From: a bacterium
Lineage (GTDB): Bacteria > Patescibacteriota > Microgenomatia > Daviesbacterales > UBA10151
Length of the DNA: 64,000 bases
Assembly: GCA_021786105.1 (NCBI GenBank)
Contig: JAJYNW010000026.1
Span: 25,072 to 89,071 of the forward strand
Direction of reading: 5' to 3'
Shown piece after piece: positions 9,403 to 39,643 of this stretch; position 1 is the first letter of the stretch, and each line of letters begins with the position of its first letter. Under the pieces are notes generated by a model. That model searched no databases, was not told the origin of the DNA, and saw only the letters and a list, made by a program, of their open reading frames with translations. A program made the position numbers and the translations under genes.

Positions 9403-9408
9403 TGGAGC
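9403..9408. repeat. Left att core TGGAGC
   Basis: Same as the last 6 nt of tRNA-Gly; joining restores tRNA plus terminator and extends the recombinase ORF. Confidence 0.75.
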
Positions 9409-9629
9409 TCCTGACGAGGTCTTAGCCAGACTGCCAGGATTCATTCAAGAATTTAACTCAAATCCTATTTTACCAGATTTTTTGTATGAATTACAGCCAG
9501 AATTAGCCTCAAAAATGCCCCAGACCGTAAAATAGACTAGTCGCTCCTATTATTTACTCCCTTTATTTAGTCCTAAAACACTGGTTTTTTCTGTATAATA
9601 ATGAGCAATAACAATTTTTAACTATTTTT

Positions 9630-9836
9630 ATGCAGGGAGAAAAAAGGTCATCAAATCTTCTCAATATTAACCAAGTTGCAAAAATACTAGGAGTTATGCC
9701 CCCAACTCTCAGACGCTGGGATAAAAGTGGAAAACTAAAGGCTATCCGTGTAGGTAATAAAAAAGGAGTTGGAGAAAGAAGATACCGCAGAGAAGATATT
9801 ATTAACATCATGGTTAGCGAATATAATAAAAAGTAA
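9630..9836 (+). CDS. MerR-type HTH protein, probable excisionase/directionality factor
   Basis: LNINQVAKILGV-P-TLRRWD--GKL...RRYRREDI; follows the recombinase in the circular form. Confidence 0.75.
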   Translation: MQGEKRSSNLLNINQVAKILGVMPPTLRRWDKSGKLKAIRVGNKKGVGERRYRREDIINIMVSEYNKK

Positions 9837-10073
9837 TTATTCGTTCCATTCAACACCTCTAATCCCTAATTTTTTAAATAATTTTTTAAGTCGTCGCACT
9901 TCCTTCGTATTTTTTAAGATTTTAATGCTCTTAAAATCGCTTCCTATTTCAATAAAACCCTTACCCCAGCAATATTGTTTGAGTTTGTTAATTTCTGTTA
10001 ACGCCTCAACTTTAGCCTTTCTCTCCTCTGGCGTCATTGAGTCCCAGATAGCCCTAAATCCTGAAATGTCCAT
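9837..10073 (-). CDS. Hypothetical protein
   Basis: Last ORF of minus-strand operon; RBS AAGGAG. Confidence 0.6.
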   Translation of the reverse strand: MDISGFRAIWDSMTPEERKAKVEALTEINKLKQYCWGKGFIEIGSDFKSIKILKNTKEVRRLKKLFKKLGIRGVEWNE

Positions 10074-10078
10074 AAGTC

Positions 10079-10699
10079 TTACTCCTTAGATAAAACAAAA
10101 AATCTCCCAGACCATTTCATTTGTCTTGACTGCTGATGGTTATTAGCAAAGTCTTCCTTGGGAAAGTCGCGCTTTAAGTCCAGTCGGTGAAATAAACTCT
10201 CCCACCACCAGCGCGGCTTCATGGTTATATGTGAGGGGTCGCCTTTACCGCCCCTTGATTCGATATGGTCTGATCCGGCAGTGCAGATAAGTAAGAATAC
10301 AAAGCGTTTGACCACTCGGTGCAGTTCTTTAACTGCTTTGAATAAATCATCCTCCTGTATATGTTCTAAAAGTTCAGTGCCAATTACTAAGTCAAAACTA
10401 TTGTCCTTAAATCTTGAAAGATCGCGGACATCACCCTCTATAATTTCTTGCGTTACAGCGCGGCTCACCGCGTAAGGGGAATACTCAACACCGGTTGCAG
10501 GTATTCCTAAATCTTGAAATCTTTTAACTACAAACCCATAAGCGCACCCCACATCTAAAACGCTCTCCGGCTTAAATAACTGATTAGTCCAAGTTGCAAA
10601 AGTATTTAAGAGTCCATCGGCTCTAGCGTATGAATCATAAGCAATCTGGTTTTTACCTTCAAAATAATCTTTATTGTAAAAATCCTTAGTTGGTTGCAT
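10079..10699 (-). CDS. Class I SAM-dependent methyltransferase
   Basis: VLDVGCAYG, SFDLV...ELLEHI. Confidence 0.9.
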   Translation of the reverse strand: MQPTKDFYNKDYFEGKNQIAYDSYARADGLLNTFATWTNQLFKPESVLDVGCAYGFVVKRFQDLGIPATGVEYSPYAVSRAVTQEIIEGDVRDLSRFKDNSFDLVIGTELLEHIQEDDLFKAVKELHRVVKRFVFLLICTAGSDHIESRGGKGDPSHITMKPRWWWESLFHRLDLKRDFPKEDFANNHQQSRQMKWSGRFFVLSKE

Positions 10700-12320
10700 A
10701 AATAGCTTTTAATCGTTCAATAATTGGAACAGCGCAGGAATCCCAAGAAAACTTTTGTCTGATAAGTTCAGAAGTTTTTAGTGCTTTCTTTTTCTCCTCT
10801 TTGTAGTTTTCAAAAACAAAGCGCATTTTCGCCTGTAAATCATCAAGTTTTGGCATTGCCCACTTGTTACCCTCTAAATAGATATAAGAGGTTTTGGCTT
10901 CACCTTCTTCCCAATCAACAAAATGGACTCCGGGGAAAGGCTTGTCGTTCTCATCTCTTAAAGTTTCGTTTGGCGCGCCATATCCTGTGGTTATCACTGG
11001 AAGCCCGCAAGCAAGGGCTTCAAAGATAGGTAATCCCCACCCCTCCCCATGAGTAGGTAAAACAAAGCAATTTCCGGCAGTATAAAAACAGCCTAATTGT
11101 TCAGTTGGTAAAATATCCTCTCTAACATAAACTCTGGCACCTGCACTTCTCGCCTTAATCGCTTCAACTTCTTTTTTCACCGGATGAGATAAAGCCGAAG
11201 ACATGGTCTTGACAACCAAACAGACGTCCTCATCTCTTGAAAATTCTTGAGTAAAAGCAATTATTAAATCCCGTAAATTTTTGCGAGGTTCCCAAGTGGC
11301 GTTGGTAATAAACTTAAATTTTTCCTTTGCATCTGTTTTTATCGGCGCCATGTTTGGATGAAAGTAGTTTGAATCAATACCTTGCGGAATTACATAAATT
11401 GGAACTTTAACGCCCGCTTTTTCAAATTTTTCTTTGTCCCACTTTGTAGGCACCCAAAGTTCATCCATCATGTTGCAATAAGCAATCCAAGACGAAGGAG
11501 CGATAGTACCCTCAAATTCACAATGGCCGATTTTATATTTTCCGGAGTTTTTGAAAAATAAGGGGGCTTGCGCCCAGACAATCTGTGGTAAATCCATAGA
11601 TGGGGAAAGTTCTCTTGTATCGTTGACAAGTCCGTCATCAGAAAGCGGTTCTGCTTCTGGTATGCCAAAAAGGTTTGAGTAATGGACTTTTACTTTCGAT
11701 CGAAGAAGCGCTGAAATATAATTTTTAGCGGCAATAGCAAACCCTGTAGGCGCTTCAACGCCAGTATGATACATAATTGGATACTTATATTGTTCGAGGT
11801 ATTTTTTACCCCACATTTCCTTAAAGAAGTTGTGGTTAAGGGTAAACTGCCGGACGAATTCCTCTTTGCTCTTTAGGGCGTATCCCTTACCGCGATACTG
11901 AACAATAAGTTTATCAGTTGCATAAACCTTAAAGCCTAATTCTTGCGCTTTTAGGCAATACTCGGCATCTTTGAAAATACAATCTCCGGCACATTCAATG
12001 ATCGGAATTTTTTTTATTAGTTCTTTTTTGACAAGACATAAAAGCAAAGGTACCATTTCAACTTCTCTTGTGCCCGGATACTGTCCGTAATACTCCTCGT
12101 TAAGGGCATAGGAAACAGGCATCATTAAATTAGGAGCAATAAAACCGCCATGAAAATAGATTTTATTTTGGTGGTTGAGGATGAGTGCAGATAAAATCCC
12201 GCAGTCTTTTAATTTCTGGGACTCTTGAAAGAGAGTGTCAATCCAGCCGGCTAAATGGCCGACAATATCCCAAGAGGCGATAATTGTATCGCCACTTTCT
12301 AATTTTACCAACTTAAACAT
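10686..12320 (-). CDS. Glycosyltransferase, GT2-like N-terminal part fused to GT4 domain
   Basis: DELWVPT, EPRKN, PTHGEGWGLPIFEALACGLPVI. Confidence 0.88.
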   Translation of the reverse strand: MFKLVKLESGDTIIASWDIVGHLAGWIDTLFQESQKLKDCGILSALILNHQNKIYFHGGFIAPNLMMPVSYALNEEYYGQYPGTREVEMVPLLLCLVKKELIKKIPIIECAGDCIFKDAEYCLKAQELGFKVYATDKLIVQYRGKGYALKSKEEFVRQFTLNHNFFKEMWGKKYLEQYKYPIMYHTGVEAPTGFAIAAKNYISALLRSKVKVHYSNLFGIPEAEPLSDDGLVNDTRELSPSMDLPQIVWAQAPLFFKNSGKYKIGHCEFEGTIAPSSWIAYCNMMDELWVPTKWDKEKFEKAGVKVPIYVIPQGIDSNYFHPNMAPIKTDAKEKFKFITNATWEPRKNLRDLIIAFTQEFSRDEDVCLVVKTMSSALSHPVKKEVEAIKARSAGARVYVREDILPTEQLGCFYTAGNCFVLPTHGEGWGLPIFEALACGLPVITTGYGAPNETLRDENDKPFPGVHFVDWEEGEAKTSYIYLEGNKWAMPKLDDLQAKMRFVFENYKEEKKKALKTSELIRQKFSWDSCAVPIIERLKAIYATN

Positions 12321-12372: not shown

Positions 12373-12714
12373 TTATTTAGGCGCAGGAATACCGACGAAG
12401 ACGAAATCTTGAGTTACTTCATCATAGTTATCCTGAATGAAGTACCGCATATAGCGGTTAAACCCGGACTCGTTCAAACCGGCAGCATAAGTATTCCACG
12501 AAGTCTTATCGCCTGCGGAAACCGTGCCGTCTCGCCAGTATTGCACACCGTATGTAAGAGACGTTCTTACTCCCTGTTGAGCTGCGCTCTTAGGATTGTA
12601 CGGAATAACTCTTAACCTTGCGTAGTTAAGACCTTTCCAAGCAGAATAAACGATAGTTTTCGCTAACGTTTGTCTTGCGTCCAAAGAGAACAATGGACCT
12701 GTCAGTCTTGGCAT
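12373..12714 (-). CDS. Small basic helical protein, candidate major coat/nucleocapsid protein (DUF6266-like)
   Basis: Strong RBS AAGGAGGTGA; PYNPKSAAQQGVR...W...SWN-YA...SGFNRY motif shared with two other element proteins. Confidence 0.6.
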   Translation of the reverse strand: MPRLTGPLFSLDARQTLAKTIVYSAWKGLNYARLRVIPYNPKSAAQQGVRTSLTYGVQYWRDGTVSAGDKTSWNTYAAGLNESGFNRYMRYFIQDNYDEVTQDFVFVGIPAPK

Positions 12715-13010: not shown

Positions 13011-13685
13011 TTATACTAAATCCTTTTTCTTTTCTTCAAATTCTTTTTTATCAATTTCACCCTTAGCGTATCGTTCCTTAAGAATTTCCAATGGGGTTTT
13101 ACTTTTATCTATATTACTATGTCCAGTTCCACCTAGGTAGCGGATTAAAGCCACTACTCCTAAAATAATAAGAACCCAAAAGATAATCATAAATATCCAA
13201 CCTATGATTCCGAAACCTCCCCAGCCGTTCATTATACCACCCCAACCACCATAACCCATCATAGGATTACCACCTCCTCCCATCATCCACATCATCGGCA
13301 TGATACCTATTCCAGAAGTAGAGGTATCACACCCGCTTAACCGTTTCCCCATAGCAATATGCATCTGCGACTCACCGTTTTCTCCCATCATAGATTTCAT
13401 CATATTGTTCATTGCTATATGTCTTGAAGTATCTCCAATTGCCTGACCCATAAAATACTCGCCGGCTTTTTCAAAATTATCATCTGTTAATTTTTCGCAT
13501 GTAGTTGTTTTATTCTTTAGCTGATCCAATAGTTTTTTACCTTCTTGTTCTTCCGCTTGTTGTTGCTGTATGGCGGTTTGATCAACAGGGGAACTGGATG
13601 AACCCATCATTTGTGCATTTACATGTTGTGCGGTAAGCGTAAAAACAAGGACACCAAGAATGGTGGCAAAGATATATTTTTTCAT
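13011..13685 (-). CDS. Met/Gly-rich membrane protein with SHOCT domain
   Basis: Signal peptide; LEILKERYAKGEIDKKEFEEKK. Confidence 0.85.
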   Translation of the reverse strand: MKKYIFATILGVLVFTLTAQHVNAQMMGSSSSPVDQTAIQQQQAEEQEGKKLLDQLKNKTTTCEKLTDDNFEKAGEYFMGQAIGDTSRHIAMNNMMKSMMGENGESQMHIAMGKRLSGCDTSTSGIGIMPMMWMMGGGGNPMMGYGGWGGIMNGWGGFGIIGWIFMIIFWVLIILGVVALIRYLGGTGHSNIDKSKTPLEILKERYAKGEIDKKEFEEKKKDLV

Positions 13686-13688
13686 AGA

Positions 13689-14072
13689 TTATTTACTTTT
13701 ATCAATAATTCCCCTGATAGCCTCGTCAACATCTTTTGGCAAGTCGCCAAGGTTTGCTTGTGGAAAAAACTGAGAAAGAATAATCGGGCGCATGCCTGAA
13801 ATATATGTCTTTCCGTTCTTTTGATACACGTTTATTTTGCAGGGCAACATGAGTCCAATCTTTATATCTGCCTGAAGGACGGTATAAGCGCTTTTGGCAT
13901 TACAAATCTCAATAATCTTAAATGGCTTAATAATAAAGCCTTTCTCTGCCAAAGTCTTCATCACATCATGAACATAAAGCACCCGAAATCCTGCCTTTTT
14001 GGTTTCTTCCGCAATCGACTTTACTGCGTCCTCGAATGATTTTTTAGTCGTAACTGTATAATCAAAATCCAT
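13689..14072 (-). CDS. DUF302 protein
   Basis: GFRVL-VHDV...EICN...IGLMLPCKINVY. Confidence 0.88.
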   Translation of the reverse strand: MDFDYTVTTKKSFEDAVKSIAEETKKAGFRVLYVHDVMKTLAEKGFIIKPFKIIEICNAKSAYTVLQADIKIGLMLPCKINVYQKNGKTYISGMRPIILSQFFPQANLGDLPKDVDEAIRGIIDKSK

Positions 14073-14142
14073 ATAGTTATCACCTCCCATCTTAAATGGT
14101 GAAACAAATTATTCCCTTAAGAAATACTTAAGGGAGAAGGGG

Positions 14143-14325
14143 CTACTTTACCTCCCCCAATTCTTTTTCTGCCTCTTGAACGGCTTTCATCTCCTTTTCT
14201 AATTCTTCCTTATATCCTTGAAGGGATTTTTTTTGCTCTTCTTTTGAAAGGAATCGCGATCCGCCCCAACAAGAACAGTTGCACCCGTACATTCTATTTT
14301 TTATCATCATAGGCATATCCATCAT
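14143..14325 (-). CDS. Small Cys-rich coiled-coil protein
   Basis: RBS AGGAGG; GCNCSC then RFLSKEE...Y-EELEKE. Confidence 0.7.
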   Translation of the reverse strand: MMDMPMMIKNRMYGCNCSCWGGSRFLSKEEQKKSLQGYKEELEKEMKAVQEAEKELGEVK

Positions 14326-14717
14326 ATTGTTTCACCTCCTCTCTTGGTTTTGTTTTGAGAACTCCTTTGATATCCTTCTAAAAACTTGTGAATAAGTTTG
14401 TCAGTTTCTATAAGAGAAAAGGCTGCTTCTTTGAGGAACTCTTGACCATTTGGGGTGATAGTATAAACTCTTCTATCGGGACGAGTCTCGTTTTTATCCC
14501 ATTCGGACTCTACCCACCCCATTGCTTCCATCCGTCTTAGAGTTCGATAGAGATTACCAATATCAACCTTTTCTCCGCAGTGTTTCTCTAAACCTTCCAT
14601 TAAACCATACCCGTGAGATGAGCCTTTGGAGAGGAGGAGGAGAATGCATGGTTCTACAAATCGCTCAATTGTGCCAAAATCCCTTGATCGGAAAGAACAA
14701 CCGCAAGTTCTGCACAT
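14322..14717 (-). CDS. PadR family regulator
   Basis: HGYGL...GNLYRTLRRME--GWV...RRVYTIT; TTGACA-17-TATGAT promoter just upstream of ATG 14717. Confidence 0.88.
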   Translation of the reverse strand: MCRTCGCSFRSRDFGTIERFVEPCILLLLSKGSSHGYGLMEGLEKHCGEKVDIGNLYRTLRRMEAMGWVESEWDKNETRPDRRVYTITPNGQEFLKEAAFSLIETDKLIHKFLEGYQRSSQNKTKRGGETI

Positions 14718-14925
14718 ATATGTAAATATCATATATGATGCTGTAGTTTTTGTCAACGGAAAATGAGGAACAAGATTACACCAATACCAATAATTAAAAT
14801 CACACTTATAACCCAAGCAAAATAATTAGTTTCGCTTCTGCGTTCTTCGATAGCACTGTAACTAAATGGCAGTTTTTCTTCTTTCTTGAAAAACTTTCTC
14901 ATCTTTAAACTATTTTAGCAAAAAC

Positions 14926-16659
14926 CTACAAAGGTGGGTAATTGGCATCTAAATACTGCGAAAGATAATAATTAAATCCCGTCATTGTTAAATTTTTTGC
15001 TTTTTCGTTGTACATATTTTTGATTGACTGATTAAAGCCATGCCAATTGCTTACTCCTTGAGCAAACACTGTGCGCCATGACTGTTGATGATAAGTCTTT
15101 GGATTATAAGGATAAAAAGGTGGTGAGACTTGGCGTCCCCACCATTGCTCCTGAAAAGTGGCAACGTTGCCAAGTTTGCCTCTTACTTTCAAAGCTAGGA
15201 AGTCATACATTCCATGAGGCCTTGTCCACGGAGGGATTGGATTTTCTATTTCATAGATTAGGCTTTTTGTTATTAACCCAGCTGTTAATACAGTGTATTG
15301 AAGTGATTTTGTATCGCTCAACGATTTTATAAGGGCATACTTGAGGCTTCTTGTTATAGCGTCCGGTGTAACTTTGACGCTGTATTTCAAGGGCTTAGTT
15401 TTGGCAGCAGGCGTTATCTTAATCGCGTATTTAAGTAATTTAGTGCTGATTATATTAACTATCACGGCGTACCTGAGAAGTTTTGTTTTTGTCGATGGAA
15501 TAGTTTTTACAGCATATTGCAAAGATTTATTTTTTGCGGTAGGTGTTGTTTTAACTGCATATTTAAGATTTTTTTGAATATCTGTTGGCGTTGTTACAAC
15601 TGGTTTATAGTCAACAATTACCCATACATCCTCAATAGTCATTAGCACTGACCCAGAAGTGGTTTGTTTTCCGCCTACTTCCATGCTATTTAAGAGGGCA
15701 AGAGTTAATGCTGAATTTATATGGCTGTAGTAATAATCATCAGATGTTGTAAGTATGACTGAATTTTCGGTTAAAACAGAGTTATAAATAAAATTCATGG
15801 CATAAGTTGCAGCTGTACCGGTGCCTCGTTTAGCAACATAATAAATCCCTGCGGCATTGATAGTGTCGTTTGCGCCAATGGTCTGATTTCCATGACCGGT
15901 TTGAGTTGTATTAAAAGCGGAAATTAGTTTAGTTTGTCTGCTTGGGATACCGGAATTAACAGAAGTGGCTTTGTTGGTAGTGCTAAAAGGTGTATCTGCC
16001 CAATAAGGGTCTGTTCCAACTTTAGTCCACGCGTTATATGTTGGCGTTCCTATTTTTGGCTGTCTGGCAATAACTCGCCCAGCTCCACAATAAGCGCTGT
16101 CATCTTCTGATATGTCATCAAAGTCAATTTGTTGCGCTGCGGTCCTAAAACCATAACCTGCACCTGTTATAGCGGCCGCAGCCATTGTCAGAGAAGTAAA
16201 AGTCAATGTTTCAATAACTGTGTCATTTGCATCTGTAAATCTTACCTCGATTGTGCCATTACTAGCTGTTCCACAAATTATCTTTACCTCAACCCGAAAC
16301 CAGCCATTAAGAGGTATAGAATTGGTAGATGCTCCTAAGAGTGTACCCGCAGAGCTTCCATTTCTTATTTTAATTTTACCTGTTGAAGATAATTGAAGCG
16401 TGACTATTCCTGTGTTGCCGTTTATTGTCTGCCAGAAGACATTATCTGCGCTGGGATTAGCAAGAATATAGGCATAGAACCTATAAAACATTGTGGCTTT
16501 GGAATAAATGATAAAATCAAAGAAAGCATTAGTTGAAGTGCACCTATAAGCATATCCGCCGGTTCTTACATTGGCGCTCTGAACGCTACAACCACCACCC
16601 GGAGTTGCTGTTTCGCTTATGCTGCCTGTTTCCGCACCACCTAACCAAATACTTGCCAT
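14926..16659 (-). CDS. Fibre/adhesin-like virion protein: beta-sandwich head, repeat stalk, C-terminal coat-like domain
   Basis: Thr/Gly-rich lectin-like N-terminus; 8 KxLxY repeats; PYNPKT..QQ..R..GV..W..GFNYY tail. Confidence 0.6.
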   Translation of the reverse strand: MASIWLGGAETGSISETATPGGGCSVQSANVRTGGYAYRCTSTNAFFDFIIYSKATMFYRFYAYILANPSADNVFWQTINGNTGIVTLQLSSTGKIKIRNGSSAGTLLGASTNSIPLNGWFRVEVKIICGTASNGTIEVRFTDANDTVIETLTFTSLTMAAAAITGAGYGFRTAAQQIDFDDISEDDSAYCGAGRVIARQPKIGTPTYNAWTKVGTDPYWADTPFSTTNKATSVNSGIPSRQTKLISAFNTTQTGHGNQTIGANDTINAAGIYYVAKRGTGTAATYAMNFIYNSVLTENSVILTTSDDYYYSHINSALTLALLNSMEVGGKQTTSGSVLMTIEDVWVIVDYKPVVTTPTDIQKNLKYAVKTTPTAKNKSLQYAVKTIPSTKTKLLRYAVIVNIISTKLLKYAIKITPAAKTKPLKYSVKVTPDAITRSLKYALIKSLSDTKSLQYTVLTAGLITKSLIYEIENPIPPWTRPHGMYDFLALKVRGKLGNVATFQEQWWGRQVSPPFYPYNPKTYHQQSWRTVFAQGVSNWHGFNQSIKNMYNEKAKNLTMTGFNYYLSQYLDANYPPL

Positions 16660-16662: not shown

Positions 16663-17079
16663 TTAGCTCACCTCCAAATTGTCTAAATTATCAGTTGTTA
16701 TCAGTTCATCGTTTGGCATAATAGCCATTAAAGATTTTTGCGTTCTGCCAAAAAACTTTTTCTCAAAGCCGAAACAATAGATTTTTATTTTTTTCTCCTC
16801 ACTGGTTCCAACATTTAAGACAATGTTTCTATAAAAATGAATTAGTTTCATGGTCTTGGGATTAAAAATTAAAGTAAAAGCAGGTAGGCTTTCGGGGTTG
16901 ACCATTTTGAAGGATAGAAGTTTCGACTGGTCTATTTCTCTAAACTGATGGAAAATTCCGTTATCATCAAATTGTTTTAAGAGACTACCATCAATGTAGT
17001 GAGCTTCCCAACACCAACGCTCTTTTATAACATTTTCAACTTGTCCTGTTTCTGGCCTTTGGAAAATATAGTTTTGCAT
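16663..17079 (-). CDS. Hypothetical virus-like protein
   Basis: Intact ORF in the structural operon. Confidence 0.6.
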   Translation of the reverse strand: MQNYIFQRPETGQVENVIKERWCWEAHYIDGSLLKQFDDNGIFHQFREIDQSKLLSFKMVNPESLPAFTLIFNPKTMKLIHFYRNIVLNVGTSEEKKIKIYCFGFEKKFFGRTQKSLMAIMPNDELITTDNLDNLEVS

Positions 17080-17110: not shown

Positions 17111-17611
17111 TCACGCTGTCTCATCATATTGGTAATTCATGGTACTGGTTGATCCAGCAGTATCACCGGCGTTTGATTGAATCTGGTGTACCAGATAATC
17201 AGATGATCCGGCGGCAAGGAGCGATCCTCCGAGTGATCCGGAAATTCCTAAGTTTGCAGAAGCTGGGGCGGAAGTTGGCATGGTTTGTGTAGCGACACTT
17301 GACGCAGAAGCAATCGGTGTCGCGTAAGTTGCTTGTGCATACGATGAAGTTCTGGCATTAGTTTTATGAACTGCTGATCCGCCAAGTGCGCTTGTTCTCC
17401 ATATTTTAAGATTGTCAATCTTTGAAGAACCACCCATTGCGGTTACATGGATTTTTTGCCACTTCTCAAAGGTATTATTCCCCGGAGTAAGCGGATTAGC
17501 GACCGGATCAAGATTAACCGCGTCAGTTGAACCCATATTGGTATTTGTTATATTGTGGGTTAGAGTTTCCCCTACGCCGTTTGCTTCGTCTATTTCTACT
17601 GTTGCTGCCAT
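17111..17611 (-). CDS. Putative beta-rich virion protein
   Basis: Ala/Ser/Thr-rich, TFEKW motif, YQYDET end. Confidence 0.55.
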   Translation of the reverse strand: MAATVEIDEANGVGETLTHNITNTNMGSTDAVNLDPVANPLTPGNNTFEKWQKIHVTAMGGSSKIDNLKIWRTSALGGSAVHKTNARTSSYAQATYATPIASASSVATQTMPTSAPASANLGISGSLGGSLLAAGSSDYLVHQIQSNAGDTAGSTSTMNYQYDETA

Positions 17612-17671: not shown

Positions 17672-17702
17672 TCTGTTAGTTACCGTAATTTCCTTGTACG
17701 AA

Positions 17703-21748: not shown

Positions 21749-21750
21749 TA

Positions 21751-32224: not shown

Positions 32225-32413
32225 TTACCCTACTGGCGGCGTACTTTTGACGCCAAAGTAAAAAGCCACAACTGCCAGAAGTACAGAGCTGACAACTCCA
32301 TCGTGTCCTAATCCGATTAAAACAAACGAGCCGATAACCACAATCATTGCCAAAATATCAGTTGGTTTCATTCTATCCAGAAAATTATAAAATTCTTTCA
32401 TATTCTGTTCCAT
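32225..32413 (-). CDS. Holin-like two-TM protein
   Basis: Two short TM helices, FYFG motif. Confidence 0.55.
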   Translation of the reverse strand: MEQNMKEFYNFLDRMKPTDILAMIVVIGSFVLIGLGHDGVVSSVLLAVVAFYFGVKSTPPVG

Positions 32414-32907
32414 AAAGTTTCGAAGTATCTAGTGAACTCTACTGCTACTTCTCTTGAAACTATTTTTATCGAAGCCTCATCATTAACTGTTACTGCACGC
32501 CTTGACATGTTATGCGATCCTAAAACTGTAATTTCTTGATCTATAATCCAAAGTTTGGCATGAGTAATAGGGGATGATGGCCCAAACTTTGCTAAAGCTC
32601 CGGCTTCTTGTAAATTTAAGATAGTGTTTTTGTTGACCGAATTTAGTGGATGTCTTGGATGTTCTTTGTTTAACAGAACTCGAACAGCAACTTTGCGCCT
32701 TGCGGCTTGCAAGACTTCATAGGAAAGTTGTTGAATACTTGAATCGTGGTCGTGATGATACCATTTCCACTCAAACTGAATAATATCTATACTCGCCTTG
32801 GCTTGCCGAACACAATCTGTGATCGTTCCAATGAAAGCTCTCCCCGGCAAAGGGGTAACTATAGCATTGATATTCTCAACCATTATTTTTGTTTGTAAGT
32901 CTTGCAT
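32398..32907 (-). CDS. PLD-superfamily (Nuc-like) nuclease
   Basis: HAKLWIID...GSHN single HKD motif. Confidence 0.85.
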   Translation of the reverse strand: MQDLQTKIMVENINAIVTPLPGRAFIGTITDCVRQAKASIDIIQFEWKWYHHDHDSSIQQLSYEVLQAARRKVAVRVLLNKEHPRHPLNSVNKNTILNLQEAGALAKFGPSSPITHAKLWIIDQEITVLGSHNMSRRAVTVNDEASIKIVSREVAVEFTRYFETLWNRI

Positions 32908-32934
32908 ACTTAAATTTTTACGCTTCCAAACCTA

Positions 32935-34905
32935 ATCGCAACTCCCAAGCGATGTACTACTAACGAAAGTTTGTCTGCGACACCATCGCTCGTGCCTCGC
33001 CTTATCGCTCGCCCTGCTTCGCAGGTCTCGCTTTGGCTTCGGCACTCGCTACCTTATGGGAAACTCCAACCTTTGTACTTTTCCCAAACCTTGGGTCGCT
33101 ATCGCGCAACCCAAACCGCCAACCTTAAACCCAATTGCGATTCGAAACTCCATCGCCCCCGACAATGCGCGCCGCCCGCCTACGGCGAACATATTTATAA
33201 GAAAAACTTGTAAGGAAAGGCGGCGCTAGGCGGGGGCTTGGGATTACCAAACATAACTCGCACCATTGCCTCTCTCGCCAAGCAAAGCTTGGCTCGTTCG
33301 GCTCCACAACTGCCCTTTGCTCGCAGTGCCTGGCCTCGCTTCGGGCAGCAGAAAAGGGTCGCTCGGTTCCCCCCGCCGCTTCTTCCCCCTAAAACCCCCT
33401 TCTTAGGCAACCCCCCTTAATCAAATGTATTGCCATATTAGGGGGAAGAACGCTCTTGGGGGGATTCTCGCTTAAAAAAGCAGGCAATAATCTATAGTTG
33501 CTTTTTTTACCCTTTCTCTGACGCTACGCAGCGGGAACCCTGTACATCCCGCTGCTTCGCTTATTCGGCGACTCGTCGGAGCCTCAATTTCTCCAACTCG
33601 TCGCCTCCAATTCCCATCGTTTACTGTTCATGTTGCTCTTGCAGGCGCGCTCGCTCCATCTCTTGCGGTCTTCGCTCGCTTGCCGTACCTGCTTTTTTAT
33701 CCCTTTCTGAACGCCGCTTTTTAAAAAGAGTTATCTTTTTGTATAAATCAAAACTTCTCCCGAAGTTTTTCAAGCGGTATTAAGCGGCGTTGAAGTGGAA
33801 TCCGCCAATAGCGGATATGGTGCGAGTAAAACCTATCATCGCCATATTCGGCGGCTGTGACCCCCGCTTATCGCTCACTCGCTTTTATTATATTTTTTAA
33901 GGTGCTCGTTCGCTGGGCGAGAGGGCGCCCTAGGGGGCGCCTCGCCCATGTCATTGCTTTCTAATAACGCTGTACAGTCTCTACCTCGCCGCCCGAAGTA
34001 GCGTTTTCTGAACCCAATCTCATCGGCGGGACGGCTACCTTTTAGGGTGGTTTAGTATCGCCTGCCTACGCGGGGGTGTGCCTTTTCCCCTCTCCTCCGC
34101 GTCGCTTCGCTCCTTGTCGGTGTCCCCCCTTCTGCGCAGGGGCGCTCCCTCTGGTCGCTTACCTGCTTGCGGGGGGAGCCCCCCTCGCCGTCGTATGGCT
34201 TGTGGAAACTCAACCGCTGTACCCGTGCGCCGAACCGCAATCTAAGCCTGTGGGCGCTCGCGCTTATCTTTTAATACTAAGGTCAACTTCGCGCTCGCTT
34301 GGGTTATCGGGGGCGCGGCGCCAAACCTCATATAAGTCGTGAAGTTTTGTGTTGGCGCGCCCCCTCTTTTTGGCTCGTGCGCTTCGCTCGGGGGGCAGGC
34401 AACAGCCGCCGAAAAGAAAAACAAAAGCGTCTGTTTTTCCCTGCTTTCGAGCTAGCGCTTAGCTTTCGTTAGGTTTTCAAAGTGCTTGTTCCCATTGGCT
34501 TCCGATGTTGCGCGGGACAAACTTTTGTCTGTTATCAAGGGCATACTGCCCGCGCTGAAAATTCTTATCGTCGCCGATTATAAAAATACTAATCATAAAT
34601 AATCATCAAATAAATCAATCATTTCTATTTTTTATTTAACCTAACATTTGGTTTAACGTTAAGTTTTTTTATTTTCTATCCCGGAGGGTAGATTTTTTGC
34701 AAACGGTCCCCCTAACCCCATTAACGCCGAAATGAGGCTAGGAGACCATCTGCGAGGAAAGTTTTATCTTTCCTATCCCGTCTGGGCTAGTTCCTCGCTG
34801 AACGGCTGGTGAGACTTAAAGAGTTTTTTTAGGACCCCCGGAGGGAATTGCACCACTCTCTTTTGGTCGCTCCCACCATGCAAACCCCAAGCGACCTGCC
34901 AGAAG
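32935..34905 (-). other. ~2 kb non-coding structured region (candidate ssDNA origin/packaging structure or large ncRNA)
   Basis: GC-rich, many nested inverted repeats, TCGC/GCGA strand bias, AT-rich spacer at ~34575-34680. Confidence 0.7.
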
Positions 34906-34908
34906 TGT

Positions 34909-35286
34909 CTATGTTTTCTTCTTGGCGCTCTTATCAATTTCTTCCATGTCCTCGTCTGAAATTTCAGGATTACCTTTATTCCATACCGGATTATCGCCGT
35001 CTATTTTTTGCACTTCATAGTGGACACTTTCGCCCTGCTTAACTTTAGTAATTTTGATGACTTCTCCCTCTTTTATTTCAGAAAAAAATAAAGCGATCCG
35101 AGATGCAGAGGATGTAAATAGTTTTTTCTCTCCGTCAACTTCGATAGAGTAGCGGGGATTTTCTTTGGTTGGGTCCCGAAAACTTGGCACCATTTTATAA
35201 CCGCAATAGATACCCACCGCGGATTCTCCGGGCTTTAACATTAAATAAGGACTATTCGCTTTGGCGTATTCTTCAAGCTCTCCCAT
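34909..35286 (-). CDS. Putative OB-fold single-stranded DNA-binding protein
   Basis: Beta-strand pattern with aromatic residues and acidic C-terminal tail. Confidence 0.55.
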   Translation of the reverse strand: MGELEEYAKANSPYLMLKPGESAVGIYCGYKMVPSFRDPTKENPRYSIEVDGEKKLFTSSASRIALFFSEIKEGEVIKITKVKQGESVHYEVQKIDGDNPVWNKGNPEISDEDMEEIDKSAKKKT

Positions 35287-35341
35287 AGTTTTATTAATTT
35301 TGGTGCCCGCCAGCTCCTGCCCTGAACCAGCGGGCATATCC

Positions 35342-35953
35342 TTACGGAATAACCAGAGTCTGATCCGGGTAAATTAAATCCGGATTTTGAATCTGGTCTT
35401 TGTTAGCGTTAAAAATGTCCTGCCAGCGATTACCATTTCCGTAAAACTTCTCGCTTATTTTCCAGAGAGAGTCTCCTGGTTGCACTCGGTAGTGGTGAAC
35501 AAGTTTGGCTTCATCAATGGCACTTCCTGTTGGTTCTTTGAGATATTTCATCGGGTCTGTCCAACCGCGCATACCCTCCGGTGTATCACCTTGAACTTTC
35601 ATCCCGAAGTGAAGATGGGGACCGGTCACAAATCCAGTGGCTCCACTTTCTCCGATCTGTTGACCTTTCGTAACATGATCTCCGATCTTCACAATAATTT
35701 TTGAAAGATGCCAATACAAAGATTGACCCCAAGAGTGTTTGATAATTACTCCCATTCCGTCTGAATCTGCTACATCATCATCGAAAATAATTTCTCCATC
35801 ATCTACTGCAAAAACTGGTGTACCTACAGAGGCTTTAAGATCAATTCCGTTATGCGGATAGCCAAACTGTTTCAAATACCAGTCAGTAGCCGCGCCGAAT
35901 GGCCAAGTAATAATCAATTCTCCTTCTAGTGGCTTTCCTATTTTTATTTCCAT
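35342..35953 (-). CDS. M23 peptidase-LysM cell-wall hydrolase (endolysin-like)
   Basis: HNGID, YWHL, TGPHLHF; YRVQPGDSLWKIS...LIYPDQTL; no signal peptide. Confidence 0.92.
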   Translation of the reverse strand: MEIKIGKPLEGELIITWPFGAATDWYLKQFGYPHNGIDLKASVGTPVFAVDDGEIIFDDDVADSDGMGVIIKHSWGQSLYWHLSKIIVKIGDHVTKGQQIGESGATGFVTGPHLHFGMKVQGDTPEGMRGWTDPMKYLKEPTGSAIDEAKLVHHYRVQPGDSLWKISEKFYGNGNRWQDIFNANKDQIQNPDLIYPDQTLVIP

Positions 35954-36092: not shown

Positions 36093-36341
36093 TTATTTGC
36101 CTTTCTCTGCTGCACTGATGTACCAGTCTTGAGCAGATATACCCAAAGCCTCACCGACTTTTTTAACATTTGATGGACGAGTGGGTTTTCCTTGTAGTAA
36201 TCTGTTGACTGTTTGTGGTGCAACTTCTGCTTCTAGTGCCAACCCCATTCTGGAAAGACCTTTTTGAAGACGCGCCTTGTCAAAAAGGCTGAAGTTTATT
36301 TTAAGCTCGTTATTGTTTAACTTATTTACATTATCATTCAT
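36093..36341 (-). CDS. Cro-like HTH regulator
   Basis: XRE-type HTH, divergent from the repressor. Confidence 0.8.
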   Translation of the reverse strand: MNDNVNKLNNNELKINFSLFDKARLQKGLSRMGLALEAEVAPQTVNRLLQGKPTRPSNVKKVGEALGISAQDWYISAAEKGK

Positions 36342-36471
36342 AAATGTTAGGAAGATTTAACAGAATAGAAACAGTTTATAAATTTATTCACTTTCAGTCA
36401 ATAAACTTTCTTTTAATTATTGTTGACAATTTTTAACTAATTTGCTACGGTATTATAAGAAGGTTATTTTT

Positions 36472-36933
36472 ATGAGCAAGAAGATAAAAGAAATGAAAAA
36501 ATCTCCACTAAGAAGTCCAGAAGAATTTAGAGATTTGGCAGACTACCTTTACTATTTGCGAACACACCGAAAGTTAAGTATGCGGGATGTCGAGCTTGCG
36601 GCTAAAGAGCTTCTCCGAAGAAAAATTATAAAAAAAGAAGGTCTTATTTCCTATGCGTATATCTCCAATATAGAAAGCCGCAGGGTAAGCAATCCCTCTC
36701 CGATTATTTTAAGAACCCTAGCTCTTATCTTTGGTGTAGATCAAGAAATGATGTTTGAAAAAGCTGGTTACCTTGATAAAAAAAGACCTAAAATAGAAGA
36801 TGACGTGGCTTTTACTTTAATGTTAAAAGAAGTTCCCAGAATGACAGATGATGAGAAACAATCGCTTTTAGACTATATAGATTTTGTTAAGTCTAGGCGG
36901 AGAAAATATGAGAAAGGCCCTAAAAAGGGCTAG
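36472..36933 (+). CDS. XRE-family repressor (ImmR/cI-like)
   Basis: LSMRDV...ISYAYISNIE...NPSP-IL--LA. Confidence 0.85.
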   Translation: MSKKIKEMKKSPLRSPEEFRDLADYLYYLRTHRKLSMRDVELAAKELLRRKIIKKEGLISYAYISNIESRRVSNPSPIILRTLALIFGVDQEMMFEKAGYLDKKRPKIEDDVAFTLMLKEVPRMTDDEKQSLLDYIDFVKSRRRKYEKGPKKG

Positions 36934-37351
36934 GGAAATTTTACAGCAATGTAATCTATCCTCTGCCCCAATAAATTTAGATAAAATTATAGAGCGTGAA
37001 GGCATAAACCTTGATGACTGGCGTTTTGCCGGAAGAATCAAAGAGGCTTACCTTGGCGATAGCATTGGCATAAAAAATTCAGTTAATCCAAAGAGGAGGC
37101 GCGAGTTAATAGCTCATGCACTAGGACATCATTTTCTTCATACGGGAAACCATTTATATTTTGAAGAACACGACCAGTTTGTTACTTTCAAACAAGAATA
37201 CGAAGCTCAATGCTTCGCGGCAGAACTTCTTATACCTACCTTAATACTCAAGCCGCTAAAAACTTGGCCAGTCCACGAATTAGCCGAGCATTTTTCCGTA
37301 ACCGAAGAATTAGTAAAATTTCGCTTAAAAGTTTTAGAGGGGGAATCATAA
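36908..37351 (+). CDS. ImmA/IrrE-family metallopeptidase-like protein (HALGH variant)
   Basis: RRR-LIAHALGH...EYEAQCFAAELLIP. Confidence 0.85.
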   Translation: MRKALKRAREILQQCNLSSAPINLDKIIEREGINLDDWRFAGRIKEAYLGDSIGIKNSVNPKRRRELIAHALGHHFLHTGNHLYFEEHDQFVTFKQEYEAQCFAAELLIPTLILKPLKTWPVHELAEHFSVTEELVKFRLKVLEGES

Positions 37352-37980
37352 TGGCTATCGCAATGCTTATTTTTATGGATGAATCCGGTGACACTGGATT
37401 TAAGTTTGGTAAAACTTCCAGTAAGTTTTTCGTTTTAGTTATCGTGATTTTTGATAGTTTGAGTGTTGCCGAAGAAGCAAACGAAGCCGTAAAGAAAGTC
37501 AGAAAAGAGTTAAAACTGCCAGAGAATTTTGAGTTTAAGTTTAGCACCGGTACATCAGATAAGGTGAAACGTGCTTTCTTACAAAAATTATCTAAATACA
37601 ATTTTCGTTATAGAACAGTGATTGTTGATAAAACCATCCTTGCCAAGCGTGAACCTTTACACCCCAAAGACAGTTTATACATGCTGGTTGCAGATCATCT
37701 CTTTTTAAGAGCGGAGGAGCGAATGAAAAACGCTTCTATTTTTATAGATCGTATTTCTAAATCCTTTGTGGATGATTTTGATGGTTATTTAAGAAAACGA
37801 CTAAACACTAATATTGAAAAGATTATCGGGAGAGTAAAACATCAGGACTCAAGAAGTAATAATTTACTCCAACTTGCCGATATGGTTTGCGGGGCAATTT
37901 ATCGAAAATACAATCGTAGTGATGATAAGTTCTACAAGATTATCAAAAAAAGAGAGGAAGATTTATGGAAACCTTATTGA
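37351..37980 (+). CDS. DUF3800 protein
   Basis: IFMDESGD...S----LQLADMVCG. Confidence 0.85.
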   Translation: MAIAMLIFMDESGDTGFKFGKTSSKFFVLVIVIFDSLSVAEEANEAVKKVRKELKLPENFEFKFSTGTSDKVKRAFLQKLSKYNFRYRTVIVDKTILAKREPLHPKDSLYMLVADHLFLRAEERMKNASIFIDRISKSFVDDFDGYLRKRLNTNIEKIIGRVKHQDSRSNNLLQLADMVCGAIYRKYNRSDDKFYKIIKKREEDLWKPY

Positions 37981-37984
37981 GTAG

Positions 37985-38082
37985 GAAAAAGTCGATCTCT
38001 GTGGCCAAGACGGATCACTTTTTATGGTGCCGACATTCGCTCCCTAACAGTAAGGTACTTTCACCACTGAGATCATTCGGTA
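37985..38082 (-). ncRNA. Candidate DUF3800-associated structured RNA
   Basis: Closing stem 37994-38004/38064-38074; convergent TTGATT-17-TATATT promoter at 38116-38088. Confidence 0.5.
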
Positions 38083-38125
38083 ACTGTAATATAGCAAATA
38101 TTGGGTCAAAAATCAAGGGGAAATT

Positions 38126-39643
38126 ATGAGAGCTTTAATCTATGTTAGGGTTTCAACAGACGAACAGGCCGATAAAGGCTTATCGTTACCTGCCCAGCAG
38201 GAAGCCTGTTTAGAATACATAAAAATTAAGCATTGGACTATTGACCCTAAAAAAGACATCTTTGTTGACGCCGGAGAATCAGCACGAACCGCTAATCGCC
38301 CAGCCCTCCAAGAAATGCTATCCCGCTGTAAGAAAGATAAAGAAGTCAATGTAGTTTTGGTCCATAAACTCGACAGGTTAGCCCGCAATGTAGCCGACCA
38401 CGCGGCTATAAGGGGAATCCTGCGAAAATATGATATACAGCTTTGTTCTGTTGTTGAGCCTGTTGATGACAGCCCCACGGGAGCGCTTCTTGAAAATATT
38501 ATGGCTTCCGTTGCAGAGTTCTATTCTGCTAATCTAGGACAGGAGGTAAAAAAAGGAATGAAGCAGGTACTTAAACAGGGGAGGTATCCGGGACGTGCGC
38601 CTGTCGGTTATCTTAATAAGGATATATTTGAGTCGGACGGCACTGTTACCAAAACAATAATTATGGATGCGATCAAAGCCCCTGCAATCCAGCAGGCTTT
38701 CAGAGTATTTGCCACTAACCAATGGACTCAAGAACAGTTATGCGATGAGCTTAATAAAAACGGCTTTAAGACGTTTTTTAATAATGGAGTAAGACCATGG
38801 AAATTGCACGGTATCCTCACAAACAAATTTTATATGGGTATTGTTGTGTGGGGCGGAGAAGAAGTGCAGGGAACCCATGAACCCTTGGTGTCTCCCGAAC
38901 TATTTTACCGAGTGCAAGACGTCTTGAGAATAAGGACTAAGAATACAACTCGCCAAAGAGCGGCAATGTTTTCTCTAAGGAGAATTCTTTATTGCCCCAA
39001 GTGTGGCAATAGATATGTTGCAGAAACCCACAAAGGCGGGCGGTTCAGCTATTATCGCTGTAGCTCCGCTTCCCGCTATGGTATGCACTGTGACCAAAAA
39101 ATGGCGGCGGAAAAAGATTTATTAGCACAGATTCTTGAAATCTTCAAACAAGTGGAGCTCCCCGAAGAACTTGTTACCCTTGCAAAAATGAACGTTAAAA
39201 AACTAGAGGAAGATCGAGTAAGCGGAGTAACAAATGAACGCAGGCACTTGCGGGAAAGAATAAGTAAACTTGAAGAAAAACAGCAGAAACTTCTTGATGA
39301 CCGGCTGGAAGGTCTTATTGATAAAGAACTATGCTACCAAAAGCTAGCCCTAATCAAAAGAGATATTGACCTTGCCAACGTAAGGCTTAATGAAATCCAA
39401 CAGGAGAACGACGCAAGCTTTGTCGCTCTTAATAAAACAATTGATGTTTTAGGAAATATCTACGAGATATACAAAATGTCCGACCCGCCAAGGCGTACTC
39501 TTTATAACCAATCTTTCTTCGAAAAGATCATGGTTGACCAAAAACGAATTACCGAGATAAAATGGCGTGCACCGTTTAGCTCGTTATATCGGGATAAACG
39601 TGATTCTGGTTTACCCCCCTATGGAGCGGGAGAGGGGATTTGA
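38126..39643 (+). CDS. Large serine recombinase (integrase)
   Basis: YVRVSTDEQ, KLDRLARN, recombinase domain, CPKCG...YYRC...C zinc ribbon, coiled coil. Confidence 0.95.
   Translation: MRALIYVRVSTDEQADKGLSLPAQQEACLEYIKIKHWTIDPKKDIFVDAGESARTANRPALQEMLSRCKKDKEVNVVLVHKLDRLARNVADHAAIRGILRKYDIQLCSVVEPVDDSPTGALLENIMASVAEFYSANLGQEVKKGMKQVLKQGRYPGRAPVGYLNKDIFESDGTVTKTIIMDAIKAPAIQQAFRVFATNQWTQEQLCDELNKNGFKTFFNNGVRPWKLHGILTNKFYMGIVVWGGEEVQGTHEPLVSPELFYRVQDVLRIRTKNTTRQRAAMFSLRRILYCPKCGNRYVAETHKGGRFSYYRCSSASRYGMHCDQKMAAEKDLLAQILEIFKQVELPEELVTLAKMNVKKLEEDRVSGVTNERRHLRERISKLEEKQQKLLDDRLEGLIDKELCYQKLALIKRDIDLANVRLNEIQQENDASFVALNKTIDVLGNIYEIYKMSDPPRRTLYNQSFFEKIMVDQKRITEIKWRAPFSSLYRDKRDSGLPPYGAGEGI

Follow-up and report, generated by a model that had tools for sequence, protein, structure and literature searches.

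A Family of Small, Apparently Phage-Related Mobile Elements of CPR Bacteria With a Candidate 2-kb Structured RNA

The Element and Its Insertion Site

Bacteria of the Candidate Phyla Radiation (CPR, or Patescibacteria) account for a large share of bacterial diversity and, to our knowledge, almost nothing is known of their mobile elements. This report concerns one such element, located in a 64,000-nucleotide stretch (contig JAJYNW010000026.1, positions 25,072 to 89,071) of a member of the Daviesbacterales (assembly GCA_021786105.1). The whole stretch is referred to here as the window, and coordinates are those of the window unless another contig is named. The host genome is 1.04 Mb in size with 40% GC, and the assembly consists of 26 contigs and is 92% complete. 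The element occupies positions 9403–39627 (30.2 kb). We regard it as an apparently intact representative of a not yet described family of small mobile elements that are related to phages and occur in CPR bacteria.

The left junction of the element bears the attL core TGGAGC (9403–9408). The identical 6 bp recur as the attR core at 39622–39627, where they form the 3′ end of the integration target, a tRNA-Gly(GCC) gene on the minus strand (39622–39696; detected with ARAGORN and Rfam). No direct repeats of ≥10 bp are present between the element's ends, and the short core was recognized by way of an unoccupied site. The left flank was searched in 20 relatives, from which three regions were retrieved, and the empty site was found in a genome of the same genus (G407, locus L171). 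There, tRNA-Gln, ~700 bp, tRNA-Gly, tRNA-Phe, glmS, tRNA-Val, and tRNA-Leu follow one another without interruption, in an order that matches the flanks in the window. The empty site reads ...GGATTTTTTGGAGCGGGAGA..., and aligning the junctions with it yields the TGGAGC core. Given this core at both junctions and the empty site, the element is a single insertion of 30.2 kb that includes both of its cargo blocks. An initial annotation of the window had proposed an integrated, undecayed element at 9403–39627. The junction alignment shows these limits to be exact, and the backbone genes are indeed intact and conserved.

The element is built of three blocks: a minus-strand backbone at 9.5–17.6 kb, a plus-strand block at 17.7–29.8 kb, and a second minus-strand backbone at 29.8–36.3 kb. 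Regulatory and integrase genes on the plus strand come after the second backbone and reach up to tRNA-Gly. The insertion site itself has tRNA genes for Gln, Gly, and Phe, and the flank at 42335–52896 is rich in further ones (Val, three Leu, Val); this tRNA-dense stretch serves as a landing zone.

Relatives of the Element

A metagenome scan with an alignment of the element's 264-amino-acid (aa) protein yielded 152 stretches, and 80 loci were retained from these. The nearest named relative is L084, a 26.4-kb contig of 'Candidatus Daviesbacteria' in which the element sits at a tRNA-Lys gene and is syntenic with the window over 17 genes, at 62–90% protein identity. The shared order begins with integrase, DUF3800, ImmA, helix-turn-helix (HTH), Cro-like, and M23-LysM genes, a 142-aa gene, a non-coding stretch, and a PLD nuclease gene. 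It continues with genes for proteins of 62, 264, 391, and 79 aa, a 475-aa protein, cargo of another kind, and genes for the 113-aa protein, a GT4 glycosyltransferase, a methyltransferase, and a 78-aa protein. L084 has no 166/138-aa module, no metal block, and no head genes. Its integrase gene (2096–3649 of that contig) reads as two open reading frames (ORFs) of 392 and 107 aa, so this copy may be fixed in place.

Six further integrated copies (L085, L089, L090, L091, L094, and L095) repeat the pattern. In five of them, the 475-aa protein stands in for the 166-, 138-, and 577-aa proteins of the window, while L090 has neither. Backbone proteins of other integrated copies are 62–99% identical to those of the window, and integrated copies range from 15.5 to 30.2 kb in length. 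Yet another arrangement is found in L162, where the 264-, 391-, 79-, 166-, 138-, and 577-aa genes form an uninterrupted row; the 79-aa gene adjoins the 166-aa gene, with neither cargo nor head genes between them.

More distant members, at ~45–50% identity, occur on at least eight contigs of 13.5–17 kb (L100, L102, L107, L109, L112, L122, L138, and L141). Each of these contigs carries every core gene once and in the same order with differing start points, and none gave an integrase match. The rotated gene orders, together with the contig sizes, suggest circular genomes, and the basic form of the family is probably a circle of about 13.5–17 kb. Pfam searches of ten L100 proteins returned methyl- and glycosyltransferases only. 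Nine distant loci (150 ORFs) matched 43 Pfam families; among the 25 families listed are GT2 and GT1 glycosyltransferases (12 ORFs each), methyltransferases, PLD (7), LysM (5), M23 (4), Beta_helix/NosD (3), DUF4257 (3), HNH_3 (2), Hjc (2), and T4 Gp10_C (1).

The family core is made up of the PLD nuclease, a protein with two transmembrane (TM) spans, three to five proteins with a common anchor domain, GT4/GT2 glycosyltransferases and methyltransferases, M23-LysM, and a GC-rich non-coding stretch. Temperate members have, in addition, a large serine recombinase, an ImmA/HTH-Cro switch, and DUF3800, and are inserted at the 3′ end of a tRNA gene. A literature search, which took in titles and the beginnings of abstracts, found no description of the element family.

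The Anchor Domain and Fiber-Like Proteins

The most conserved core protein is a basic protein of 113 aa (12373–12714, minus strand) with an isoelectric point (pI) of 9.6 and no TM span. Its family comprises 74 clusters at 47–96% identity, the longest contig being 19.9 kb. The protein is distantly related to Pfam DUF6266, for which no mention was found in the literature: it scores 16.0 bits, below the 23.4-bit gathering cut-off, and 28 of 40 family members match the same model weakly (best E 6.7e-4), over the first ~80 of 198 profile positions. A PDB-sequence profile search with the family alignment (A7) returned no solved coat protein and nothing under E 0.02.

The 113-aa protein consists solely of a helical domain of ~95 aa that is also found, as homologous sequence, at the C-termini of the 577- and 475-aa proteins and in residues 41–95 of the 264-aa protein. 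Jackhmmer searches place this anchor domain in three to five proteins per element, at either end and fused to varied modules, namely jelly-roll/carbohydrate-binding module (CBM), beta-helix, or repeat-shaft fiber modules. The domain profile extends to 2875 representative clusters, many of them ~200 aa long. We read the domain as an attachment or assembly domain that would mount different sugar-binding heads on a common structure.

One such fusion is the 264-aa core protein (31420–32214, minus strand), whose AlphaFold2 model (pLDDT 83) has a disordered arm, three helices that contain the anchor region, and then one jelly-roll. In Foldseek searches, the jelly-roll resembles CBM16 and a domain of the CBA120 tailspike TSP4 (E ~1e-4) and, more weakly, the capsid protein of cowpea mosaic virus (CPMV; 9e-4). 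Matches in BFVD are to minor tail, galactose-binding, and tail-fiber proteins (E 1e-5 to 1e-3). Its 45 homologues or clusters are nearly all 264 aa long, on contigs of up to 26.4 kb.

The neighboring 391-aa core protein (30090–31265, minus strand; 61 loci) joins a His-rich N-terminus, with the invariant residues W6, H30, H37, H47, D54, and H55, to a jelly-roll/CBM-like region. It matches phrog_10059, of unknown function (E 1e-12), and gives a weak CE2_N match and weak GH16-like PDB rows (E 0.03). PDB-sequence profiles of this family and of the 142-aa family returned nothing below E 0.02. The fiber-like proteins have neither a hydrophobic span nor a signal-like N-terminus.

Distant anchor-domain proteins are also carried by five IMG/VR contigs from high-GC hosts, and in three of the five a PLD gene adjoins. 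In L176, L177, and L178 (IMG/VR, 52–63% GC), the neighbor of the PLD-nuclease gene encodes a DUF6266-like protein, and searches with two large ORFs of L177 gave no PDB match. The pairing of PLD and anchor domain, as seen in these gene neighborhoods, may thus be older and wider than CPR.

A Module Shared With Tailed Phages

Three adjacent minus-strand genes tie the element to tailed phages. The first encodes a 166-aa protein with an Ig/pilin-like beta-sandwich (17111–17611; AlphaFold2 pLDDT 92) whose structural matches are only generic. It has 83 relatives in IMG/VR at 60–85% identity (80 of them kept as loci), and its family numbers at least 1226 clusters, with the longest contigs concentrated at 33–46 kb. 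The second encodes a 138-aa protein (16663–17079) whose homologues lie beside the 166-aa gene; they were found by tblastn in 70 and by phmmer in 62 of the 80 IMG/VR loci, and the PHROG that it matches is of unknown function. The third encodes a chimeric fiber protein of 577 aa (14926–16659), with a phage-type N-domain (aa 1–350), a shaft of ~13-aa repeats (aa 354–472), and the anchor domain (aa 467–577). Residues 1–474 align to aa 1–486 of an L014 protein, and up to ~1000 aa of a 2332-aa protein of L011 consist of repeats matching the shaft. In contrast, the C-terminus is absent from the phage homologues and is 75% identical to the 475-aa protein of L084 and 38% identical to the 113-aa protein.

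The phage contigs with a 166-aa relative are those of tailed phages. BLAST with two references each for the large terminase subunit (TerL), portal, and major capsid protein (MCP), taken from L057 and L011, found an HK97-type MCP in 53 of the 80 loci. In L057 and L011, genes for TerL, portal (with MuF), prohead protease, and an HK97-type capsid protein precede the 166-aa gene. Downstream of it in L057 lie genes for the homologue of the 138-aa protein, a 797-aa protein homologous to the 577-aa fiber, two head-tail adaptors, and Neck1, followed by those for a minor tail protein, tape measure, and hub. A position between head and connector genes is the usual place of decoration or head-fiber genes. 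The element's module resembles such Caudoviricetes head-proximal modules in the 166/138/fiber order, which in L057 lies between capsid and adaptor genes, and in the ~13-aa repeat shaft. It differs in that it is accompanied by no head gene and that its fiber has gained a C-terminal anchor domain.

Homologues of just three of the 24 backbone proteins, those of 166, 138, and 577 aa, are encoded in the 80 phage loci, if one weak match of the 391-aa protein is set aside; further element proteins have domains in common with proteins of these phage contigs. A phylum-wide search with the 577-aa protein gave matches in two of 401 genomes, namely the element's own genome and one that matches the repeat part only. 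Tblastn against a GenBank phage collection with the 166-aa protein and a 195-aa DUF6266-like representative gave no match.

These comparisons show that the 166/138/577-aa module was swapped in from tailed phages of ~35–46 kb as an alternative filling of a variable fiber slot. Since the corresponding row is unbroken and free of cargo in L162, the 12-kb cargo block of the window was inserted later, and the phage-type genes are not the remains of a prophage. The initial annotation had named HK97, portal, terminase, or tail-tube folds among the backbone proteins, or a packaging module deleted here but present in related elements, as refuting its view. A tailed-phage connection exists only for the 166-aa, 138-aa, and N-terminal 577-aa sequences, and these form an exchangeable insert that most family members lack.

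Lysogeny, Lysis, and Transferase Genes

Functions of the remaining backbone genes were assigned with Pfam (20 backbone ORFs, scans being made of ORFs of at least 60 aa) and PHROGs (13 backbone ORFs). The integrase is a 505-aa large serine recombinase (38126–39643, plus strand; Resolvase E 1.6e-36, Recombinase 8.1e-17, Zn_ribbon_recom 1.1e-10), and its 3′ end overlaps tRNA-Gly. The set of three domains and a short core without long direct repeats are those of this recombinase type. Upstream on the same strand lie genes for a DUF3800 protein (37210–37980; E 3.8e-18), an ImmA/IrrE M78 metallopeptidase (36884–37351), and an HTH_19 repressor-like protein (36442–36933). Divergent from the last is the gene for an 82-aa Cro/C1-type HTH protein (36093–36341, minus strand; HTH_3 E 6.3e-7), so that the arrangement is that of a lysogeny switch.

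The integrases of relatives are only 24–84% identical to that of the window, and other tRNA targets are used. Within 38028–38067, in the interval between DUF3800 and the integrase, contigs from three runs end or diverge; loose contig ends occur there in runs X7 and X3, and one X7 contig skips 38084–39622. The interval looks like a boundary for the exchange of integrase modules.

Lysis-type genes begin on the minus strand with an endolysin-like M23 peptidase with LysM (35342–35953; Peptidase_M23 E 3.6e-26, LysM E 1.7e-13), which also matches the PHROG endolysin and metallo-endopeptidase families. A 62-aa ORF (32225–32413, minus strand; 9–13 homologues) is holin-like, given its two hydrophobic spans by hydropathy. 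It lies next to the core gene for a PLD-family, Nuc-like nuclease (32398–32907, minus strand; PLDc_2 E 1e-21), which is present in 61 loci. The transferases are a core GT4 glycosyltransferase of 544 aa (10686–12320, minus strand; Glycos_transf_1 E 6.8e-13, GT4-conflict E 1.3e-7; 19 loci) and an S-adenosylmethionine (SAM)-dependent methyltransferase (10079–10699, minus strand; Methyltransf_11 E 1.8e-16).

Several small conserved genes complete the minus-strand backbone. The acidic 142-aa protein (34909–35337) has no Pfam, PHROG, or PDB-sequence match. Its Atlas look-alikes are hypothetical proteins of Uroviricota (0.92–0.93), and an Atlas lead at 0.82 points to a cluster with Phi29_Phage_SSB in 44% of its members. 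The 79-aa protein (29847–30086) has 10 homologues in the close group, and the basic 78-aa protein (9837–10073), with tblastn matches in 10 loci, has 12 family members by jackhmmer, each encoded just upstream of the M23 gene or the lysogeny module. A 97-aa ORF with one hydrophobic span (9563–9856) has no Pfam or PHROG match and is absent from relatives; nucleotide homology to L085 and L095 stops near 9844, inside it.

The initial annotation had read most of these genes from the letters alone. Its integrase, repressor/Cro switch, M23-LysM, PLD, glycosyltransferase, and methyltransferase are borne out by Pfam, its holin-like ORF by the two spans of the 62-aa protein, its small basic protein by the pI of the 113-aa protein, and its beta-sandwich proteins by the models of the 166- and 264-aa proteins. 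Two of its labels are not borne out: the "excisionase-like" HTH is simply the HTH_3 protein of Cro/C1 type, and the "SSB-like" character of the 142-aa protein comes down to the Atlas lead.

A Large Structured Non-Coding Stretch

Between the PLD and 142-aa genes lies a GC-rich, non-coding stretch of ~2.0 kb (32908–34908), a candidate giant structured RNA that would be read from the minus strand, as judged from the flanking genes. Its GC content is 52%, compared with ~40% around it; the minus strand is purine-rich, and no ORF exceeds 113 codons from stop to stop. In the window and five close loci, the stretch is 1.9–2.2 kb long and as well conserved as the neighboring proteins, with 79–90% nucleotide identity to the window copy (~80% in L084). 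The structured region noted in the initial annotation is thus a conserved and covarying feature.

The evidence for structure comes from a nine-sequence alignment (A3; one sequence is truncated at its 5′ end). RNAalifold predicts 570 pairs, with 95.8% of cells paired and many GNRA-like loops. Pairs in which both bases have changed number 57, as opposed to 29.3 ± 3.3 in shuffled alignments (none of 500 reached 57) and 8–17 in slid controls, in a test whose structure is derived from the same nine related sequences. Parts of the stretch are detectable by nhmmer in distant members, and a GC-raised window lies upstream of PLD in most of 34 loci. A 128-nt model of one arm scored 55 bits in L117 and 26 bits each in L112 and L115, with no match in 11 tailed-phage loci.

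None of 4227 Rfam models, among them those of GOLLD, ROOL, HEARO, OLE, group I and II introns, and rRNA, matched the stretch in a scan of the window at gathering scores, and searches of 32700–35100 at E up to 10 gave only two chance-level miRNA rows (E 1.8 and 5.4). Other explanations of the stretch were considered. Coding in another code or frame is rejected on the grounds that no long stop-to-stop frame exists and that indels among relatives do not come in threes; an rRNA or a tRNA array is rejected by the tRNA scan and Rfam.

Among large ornate RNAs of bacteria and phages, GOLLD, ROOL, HEARO, and OLE are the closest parallels. Like these, the stretch is large, higher in GC than the sequence around it, and dense in predicted structure, and it belongs to a mobile or prophage-like element near tRNA genes; prophages are also where GOLLD and ROOL, which form multimers, can be found. 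Unlike these, it matches no Rfam model, may comprise more than one RNA, and is two to three times longer. An AT-rich gap (34580–34660, minus strand), mostly deleted in L094 and L095, parts a 250-nt 5′ structured domain from the remainder, so the stretch may hold two RNAs. A simple promoter/terminator scan of the region, gap included, found nothing above shuffles on the minus strand.

Cargo

The plus-strand block is a 12.1-kb island for metal and redox homeostasis (17694–29838), on the strand opposite to the backbone. Its genes, as assigned by Pfam, encode ArsR, two E1-E2 (P-type) ATPases, a Cation_efflux (CDF) protein, NAD_synthase, an Fer4 ferredoxin, a Penicillinase_R (BlaI) and M56 pair, and a class-V aminotransferase (Aminotran_5). 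A smaller island of 1.8 kb (13011–14816, minus strand) encodes a SHOCT membrane protein, DUF302, a 60-aa ORF, and PadR, again by Pfam. At the position of the small island, L084 has other cargo, namely a Na/Ca exchanger, an iron permease, and Na/H-TrkA. In general, relatives carry differing cargo at differing places, on the opposite strand where present. Runs that hold DNA of the element include metagenomes of mine drainage, mine tailings, and groundwater.

Comparison With Known Classes of Elements

Pfam and PHROG searches turned up no terminase, portal, capsid, ATPase, Rep, primase, or conjugation family among the scanned backbone ORFs, in agreement with the initial annotation, which had recognized no tailed-phage, inovirus, Rep, primase, or conjugation hallmark. 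Likewise, no ATPase, Rep, capsid, terminase, or portal family occurs among the ten L100 ORFs or the 25 listed of the 43 families of distant members. Head, connector, and tail genes are lacking in the syntenic relatives, both in L084, L085, L089–L091, L094, and L095 and in the permuted contigs L100, L107, L109, L112, L122, L138, and L141. Since the syntenic relatives also do without them, the absence of hallmarks is not a local deletion. The search for syntenic elements that the initial annotation had suggested has therefore yielded relatives, and these are likewise without a packaging module.

Comparisons with individual classes cover the window, L100, and the listed families of distant members. 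The connector, tail tube, and tape measure of Caudoviricetes, present in L057, have no counterpart in the element or its relatives. Neither a Zot-type assembly ATPase nor a rolling-circle Rep, as in Inoviridae, was found, and no P-loop ATPase family that could represent the FtsK/HerA-type packaging ATPase of double jelly-roll viruses (Tectiviridae, Corticoviridae, and kin). The only jelly-roll modeled, that of the 264-aa protein, is single and closest to CBMs, with the CPMV capsid a weak match. As for a SIRV2-type coat, the 113-aa profile has no PDB-sequence match, and the homologous part of the 264-aa model has three helices. Linear double-stranded DNA with terminal inverted repeats, as in Adnaviria, does not agree with permuted, circular-type gene orders and integration by a serine recombinase. 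Replication initiator, partition, relaxase, and type IV secretion genes, as in plasmids and integrative and conjugative elements (ICEs), were not found either. An integrase and a regulatory switch (HTH_19 with ImmA, and HTH_3) are present, as in satellites, with no primase or Rep-helicase to form a replication module. Going by gene content, the element fits no class among inoviruses, double jelly-roll viruses, plasmids or ICEs, and known satellites.

Two groups nonetheless share several traits with it. Satellites of the P4-like, PICI, cf-PICI, PLE, and PICMI kinds also have a tRNA-site integrase and an HTH/ImmA-type switch and lack terminase, portal, and capsid, and P4 encodes the capsid-decoration protein Psu. 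Its presumed basic form of 13.5–17 kb is about a third as long as the tailed phages that carry shared genes (33–46 kb). Unlike satellites, the element has no recognized primase, replication module, small terminase, or capsid-size or interference gene; many members of its family have no integrase match, and the core consists of fibers, transferases, PLD, and the 2-kb RNA. The Rudiviridae and Lipothrixviridae (Adnaviria) are known for glycosyltransferases, SAM methyltransferases, Hjc-type resolvases, the lack of a packaging ATPase, and a small helical basic protein. The element has parallels to each of these, Hjc being occasional. It differs in having a bacterial (CPR) host, genomes that are circular or integrated, and a helical domain common to several fiber-like proteins.

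Interpretation

Fiber modules shared with phages, a lysogeny switch, lysis-type genes, and a size of about one third that of the phages together suggest spread in particles. The element is thus probably, and we say so with moderate confidence, a new phage-related mobile element of CPR bacteria that spreads in particles of its own or of a helper. Its life cycle might run as follows. The HTH/ImmA switch would keep the element silent until induction, upon which it would be excised at TGGAGC. Replication would fall to host enzymes, with the large RNA possibly acting as primer or organizer, since no Rep is encoded. The transferases would glycosylate and methylate some product, and exit would be by lysis (the two-TM protein and M23-LysM), in particles bearing the element's own carbohydrate-binding fibers.

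As to the particle, it may tentatively be supposed that it is of its own, still unrecognized kind and built around the anchor-domain proteins. Packaging as a satellite in the capsid of a helper tailed phage, such as the 33–46 kb phages, seems to us nearly as likely. The most far-reaching form of the idea is speculative, and we would lean against it: the circles would be genomes of a new kind of bacterial virus infecting CPR, with a particle of anchor-domain proteins in which the 113-aa protein is the main subunit and its paralogues bear turrets of the jelly-roll, beta-helix, or fiber kind, without a packaging ATPase and without an HK97 or double jelly-roll capsid. The 2-kb RNA would then be active in replication or particle assembly, and no larger structured RNA, ribosomal RNA aside, would be known from a mobile element of bacteria.

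A number of observations weigh against spread in particles or its components. No known capsid, packaging, or replication gene was recognized in the element, and particle spread is something that we infer. The anchor domain has no match in the 80 tailed-phage loci, and the family was not found in IMG/VR in scans with the 264-aa protein, alignment A2, the 391-aa protein, and the 113-aa alignment A7. In the element's own genome, 92% complete, neither Phage_capsid (PF05065), Phage_portal (PF04860), and Terminase_6C (PF17289) matches nor homologues of the L057 and L011 head proteins were found, and thus no helper prophage. For circularity, the whole contig L100 (16,942 bp) has no terminal repeat of 11–200 bp. 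The sole sign of expression, a weak one, is a 190-nt contig of one RNA run over 33413–33602; this run has no other cover over a 10.4-kb stretch, which carries no evidential weight. Finally, metal-resistance and ion-transport cargo makes up 46% of the element, and such cargo is commoner in plasmids and genomic islands than in viruses or satellites.

That last point leads to the rival that we take most seriously while still thinking it unlikely, a non-viral integrative plasmid or genomic island. It would form Rep-less circles, replicated by host enzymes and perhaps RNA-primed, and would make no particle; the adhesins, surface glycosylation, and wall-remodeling peptidase would be supplied to the CPR cell, with adaptive cargo being gathered. 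Small circles, integrated copies of 15.5 to 30.2 kb, and cargo that differs in kind and place between copies all suit such an element, as do the want of a capsid or packaging gene, the failure to find the family in IMG/VR, and runs from mine drainage, tailings, and groundwater, where metal cargo would pay. The scans, however, show no Rep, partition, relaxase, or secretion gene, and adhesins of the cell would sit uneasily with fiber-like proteins that have neither a hydrophobic span nor a signal-like N-terminus. There is exchange of modules with tailed phages, a head-proximal set of three genes among them, and the combination of a two-TM holin-like protein, M23-LysM, and a Cro/ImmA switch is typical of a temperate virus or satellite. 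The initial annotation had explained the tolerance of cargo by a flexible virion. The tolerance is real, in that relatives vary their cargo, but it fits a plasmid-like element equally well.

The initial annotation had itself favored a temperate virus with a helical virion, that is, a subset of the own-particle case in which the 113-aa protein coats the DNA as in Rudiviridae and Lipothrixviridae. We consider this improbable. The 113-aa protein is, to be sure, the most conserved, basic, and free of TM spans, and the homologous part of the 264-aa model consists of three helices after a disordered arm. Glycosyl- and methyltransferases are core genes, Hjc-type resolvases occur in two of 150 ORFs, no packaging ATPase is present, and genome length varies two-fold. 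Yet the anchor domain is fused to jelly-roll, fiber, or beta-helix modules in three to five proteins, an arrangement more in keeping with attachment than with the coating of DNA; the genomes seem to be circles or integrated copies, not linear molecules with inverted ends, and the A7 profile finds no solved coat protein. With models that resemble carbohydrate-binding and phage-fiber modules and no helical-coat match, a filamentous virion is not supported. A decayed tailed prophage, with its head and packaging module deleted and a metal-resistance island in its place, is scarcely credible and is rejected. TerL, portal, protease, and MCP do precede the 166, 138, and fiber genes in L057 and L011, and the position directly upstream of the 166-aa gene is taken by the 12-kb cargo. 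In L162, however, nothing separates the 79-aa gene from the 166-aa gene, neither cargo nor head genes, and the syntenic relatives are all without head, connector, and tail genes. Moreover, phage homologues exist for only three of 24 backbone proteins, one weak match aside, and the backbone genes are intact and conserved.

Wider Relevance

The 152 metagenome stretches and 2875 representative anchor-domain clusters define a widespread family. Tools for finding viruses, plasmids, or satellites overlook it, since it belongs to none of the classes that they use. If particles are formed, the family would stand either for a virus architecture not seen before or for the first satellites of phages that infect CPR bacteria; otherwise, it would be a Rep-less plasmid type that trades fiber modules with phages. 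The candidate ~2-kb RNA, with covariation and no Rfam family, bears on the role of large RNAs in mobile elements. Heavy-metal efflux genes moved by the element, in DNA from mine drainage and groundwater, bear on the adaptation of streamlined symbionts.

Other Observations

Two features outside the element may be mentioned. The host genome has a second large serine recombinase gene (contig C17, ~56845–58248 of that contig) whose product is 31% identical to that of the element, and it may mark another integrated element. Between tRNA-Phe and glmS, just beyond the element, lies a 173-aa ORF (39898–40419) with a C-terminus that appears HNH-like by eye. This stretch has 81% nucleotide identity in L173 (genome G412), and in L171 (G407) glmS follows almost directly after tRNA-Phe.

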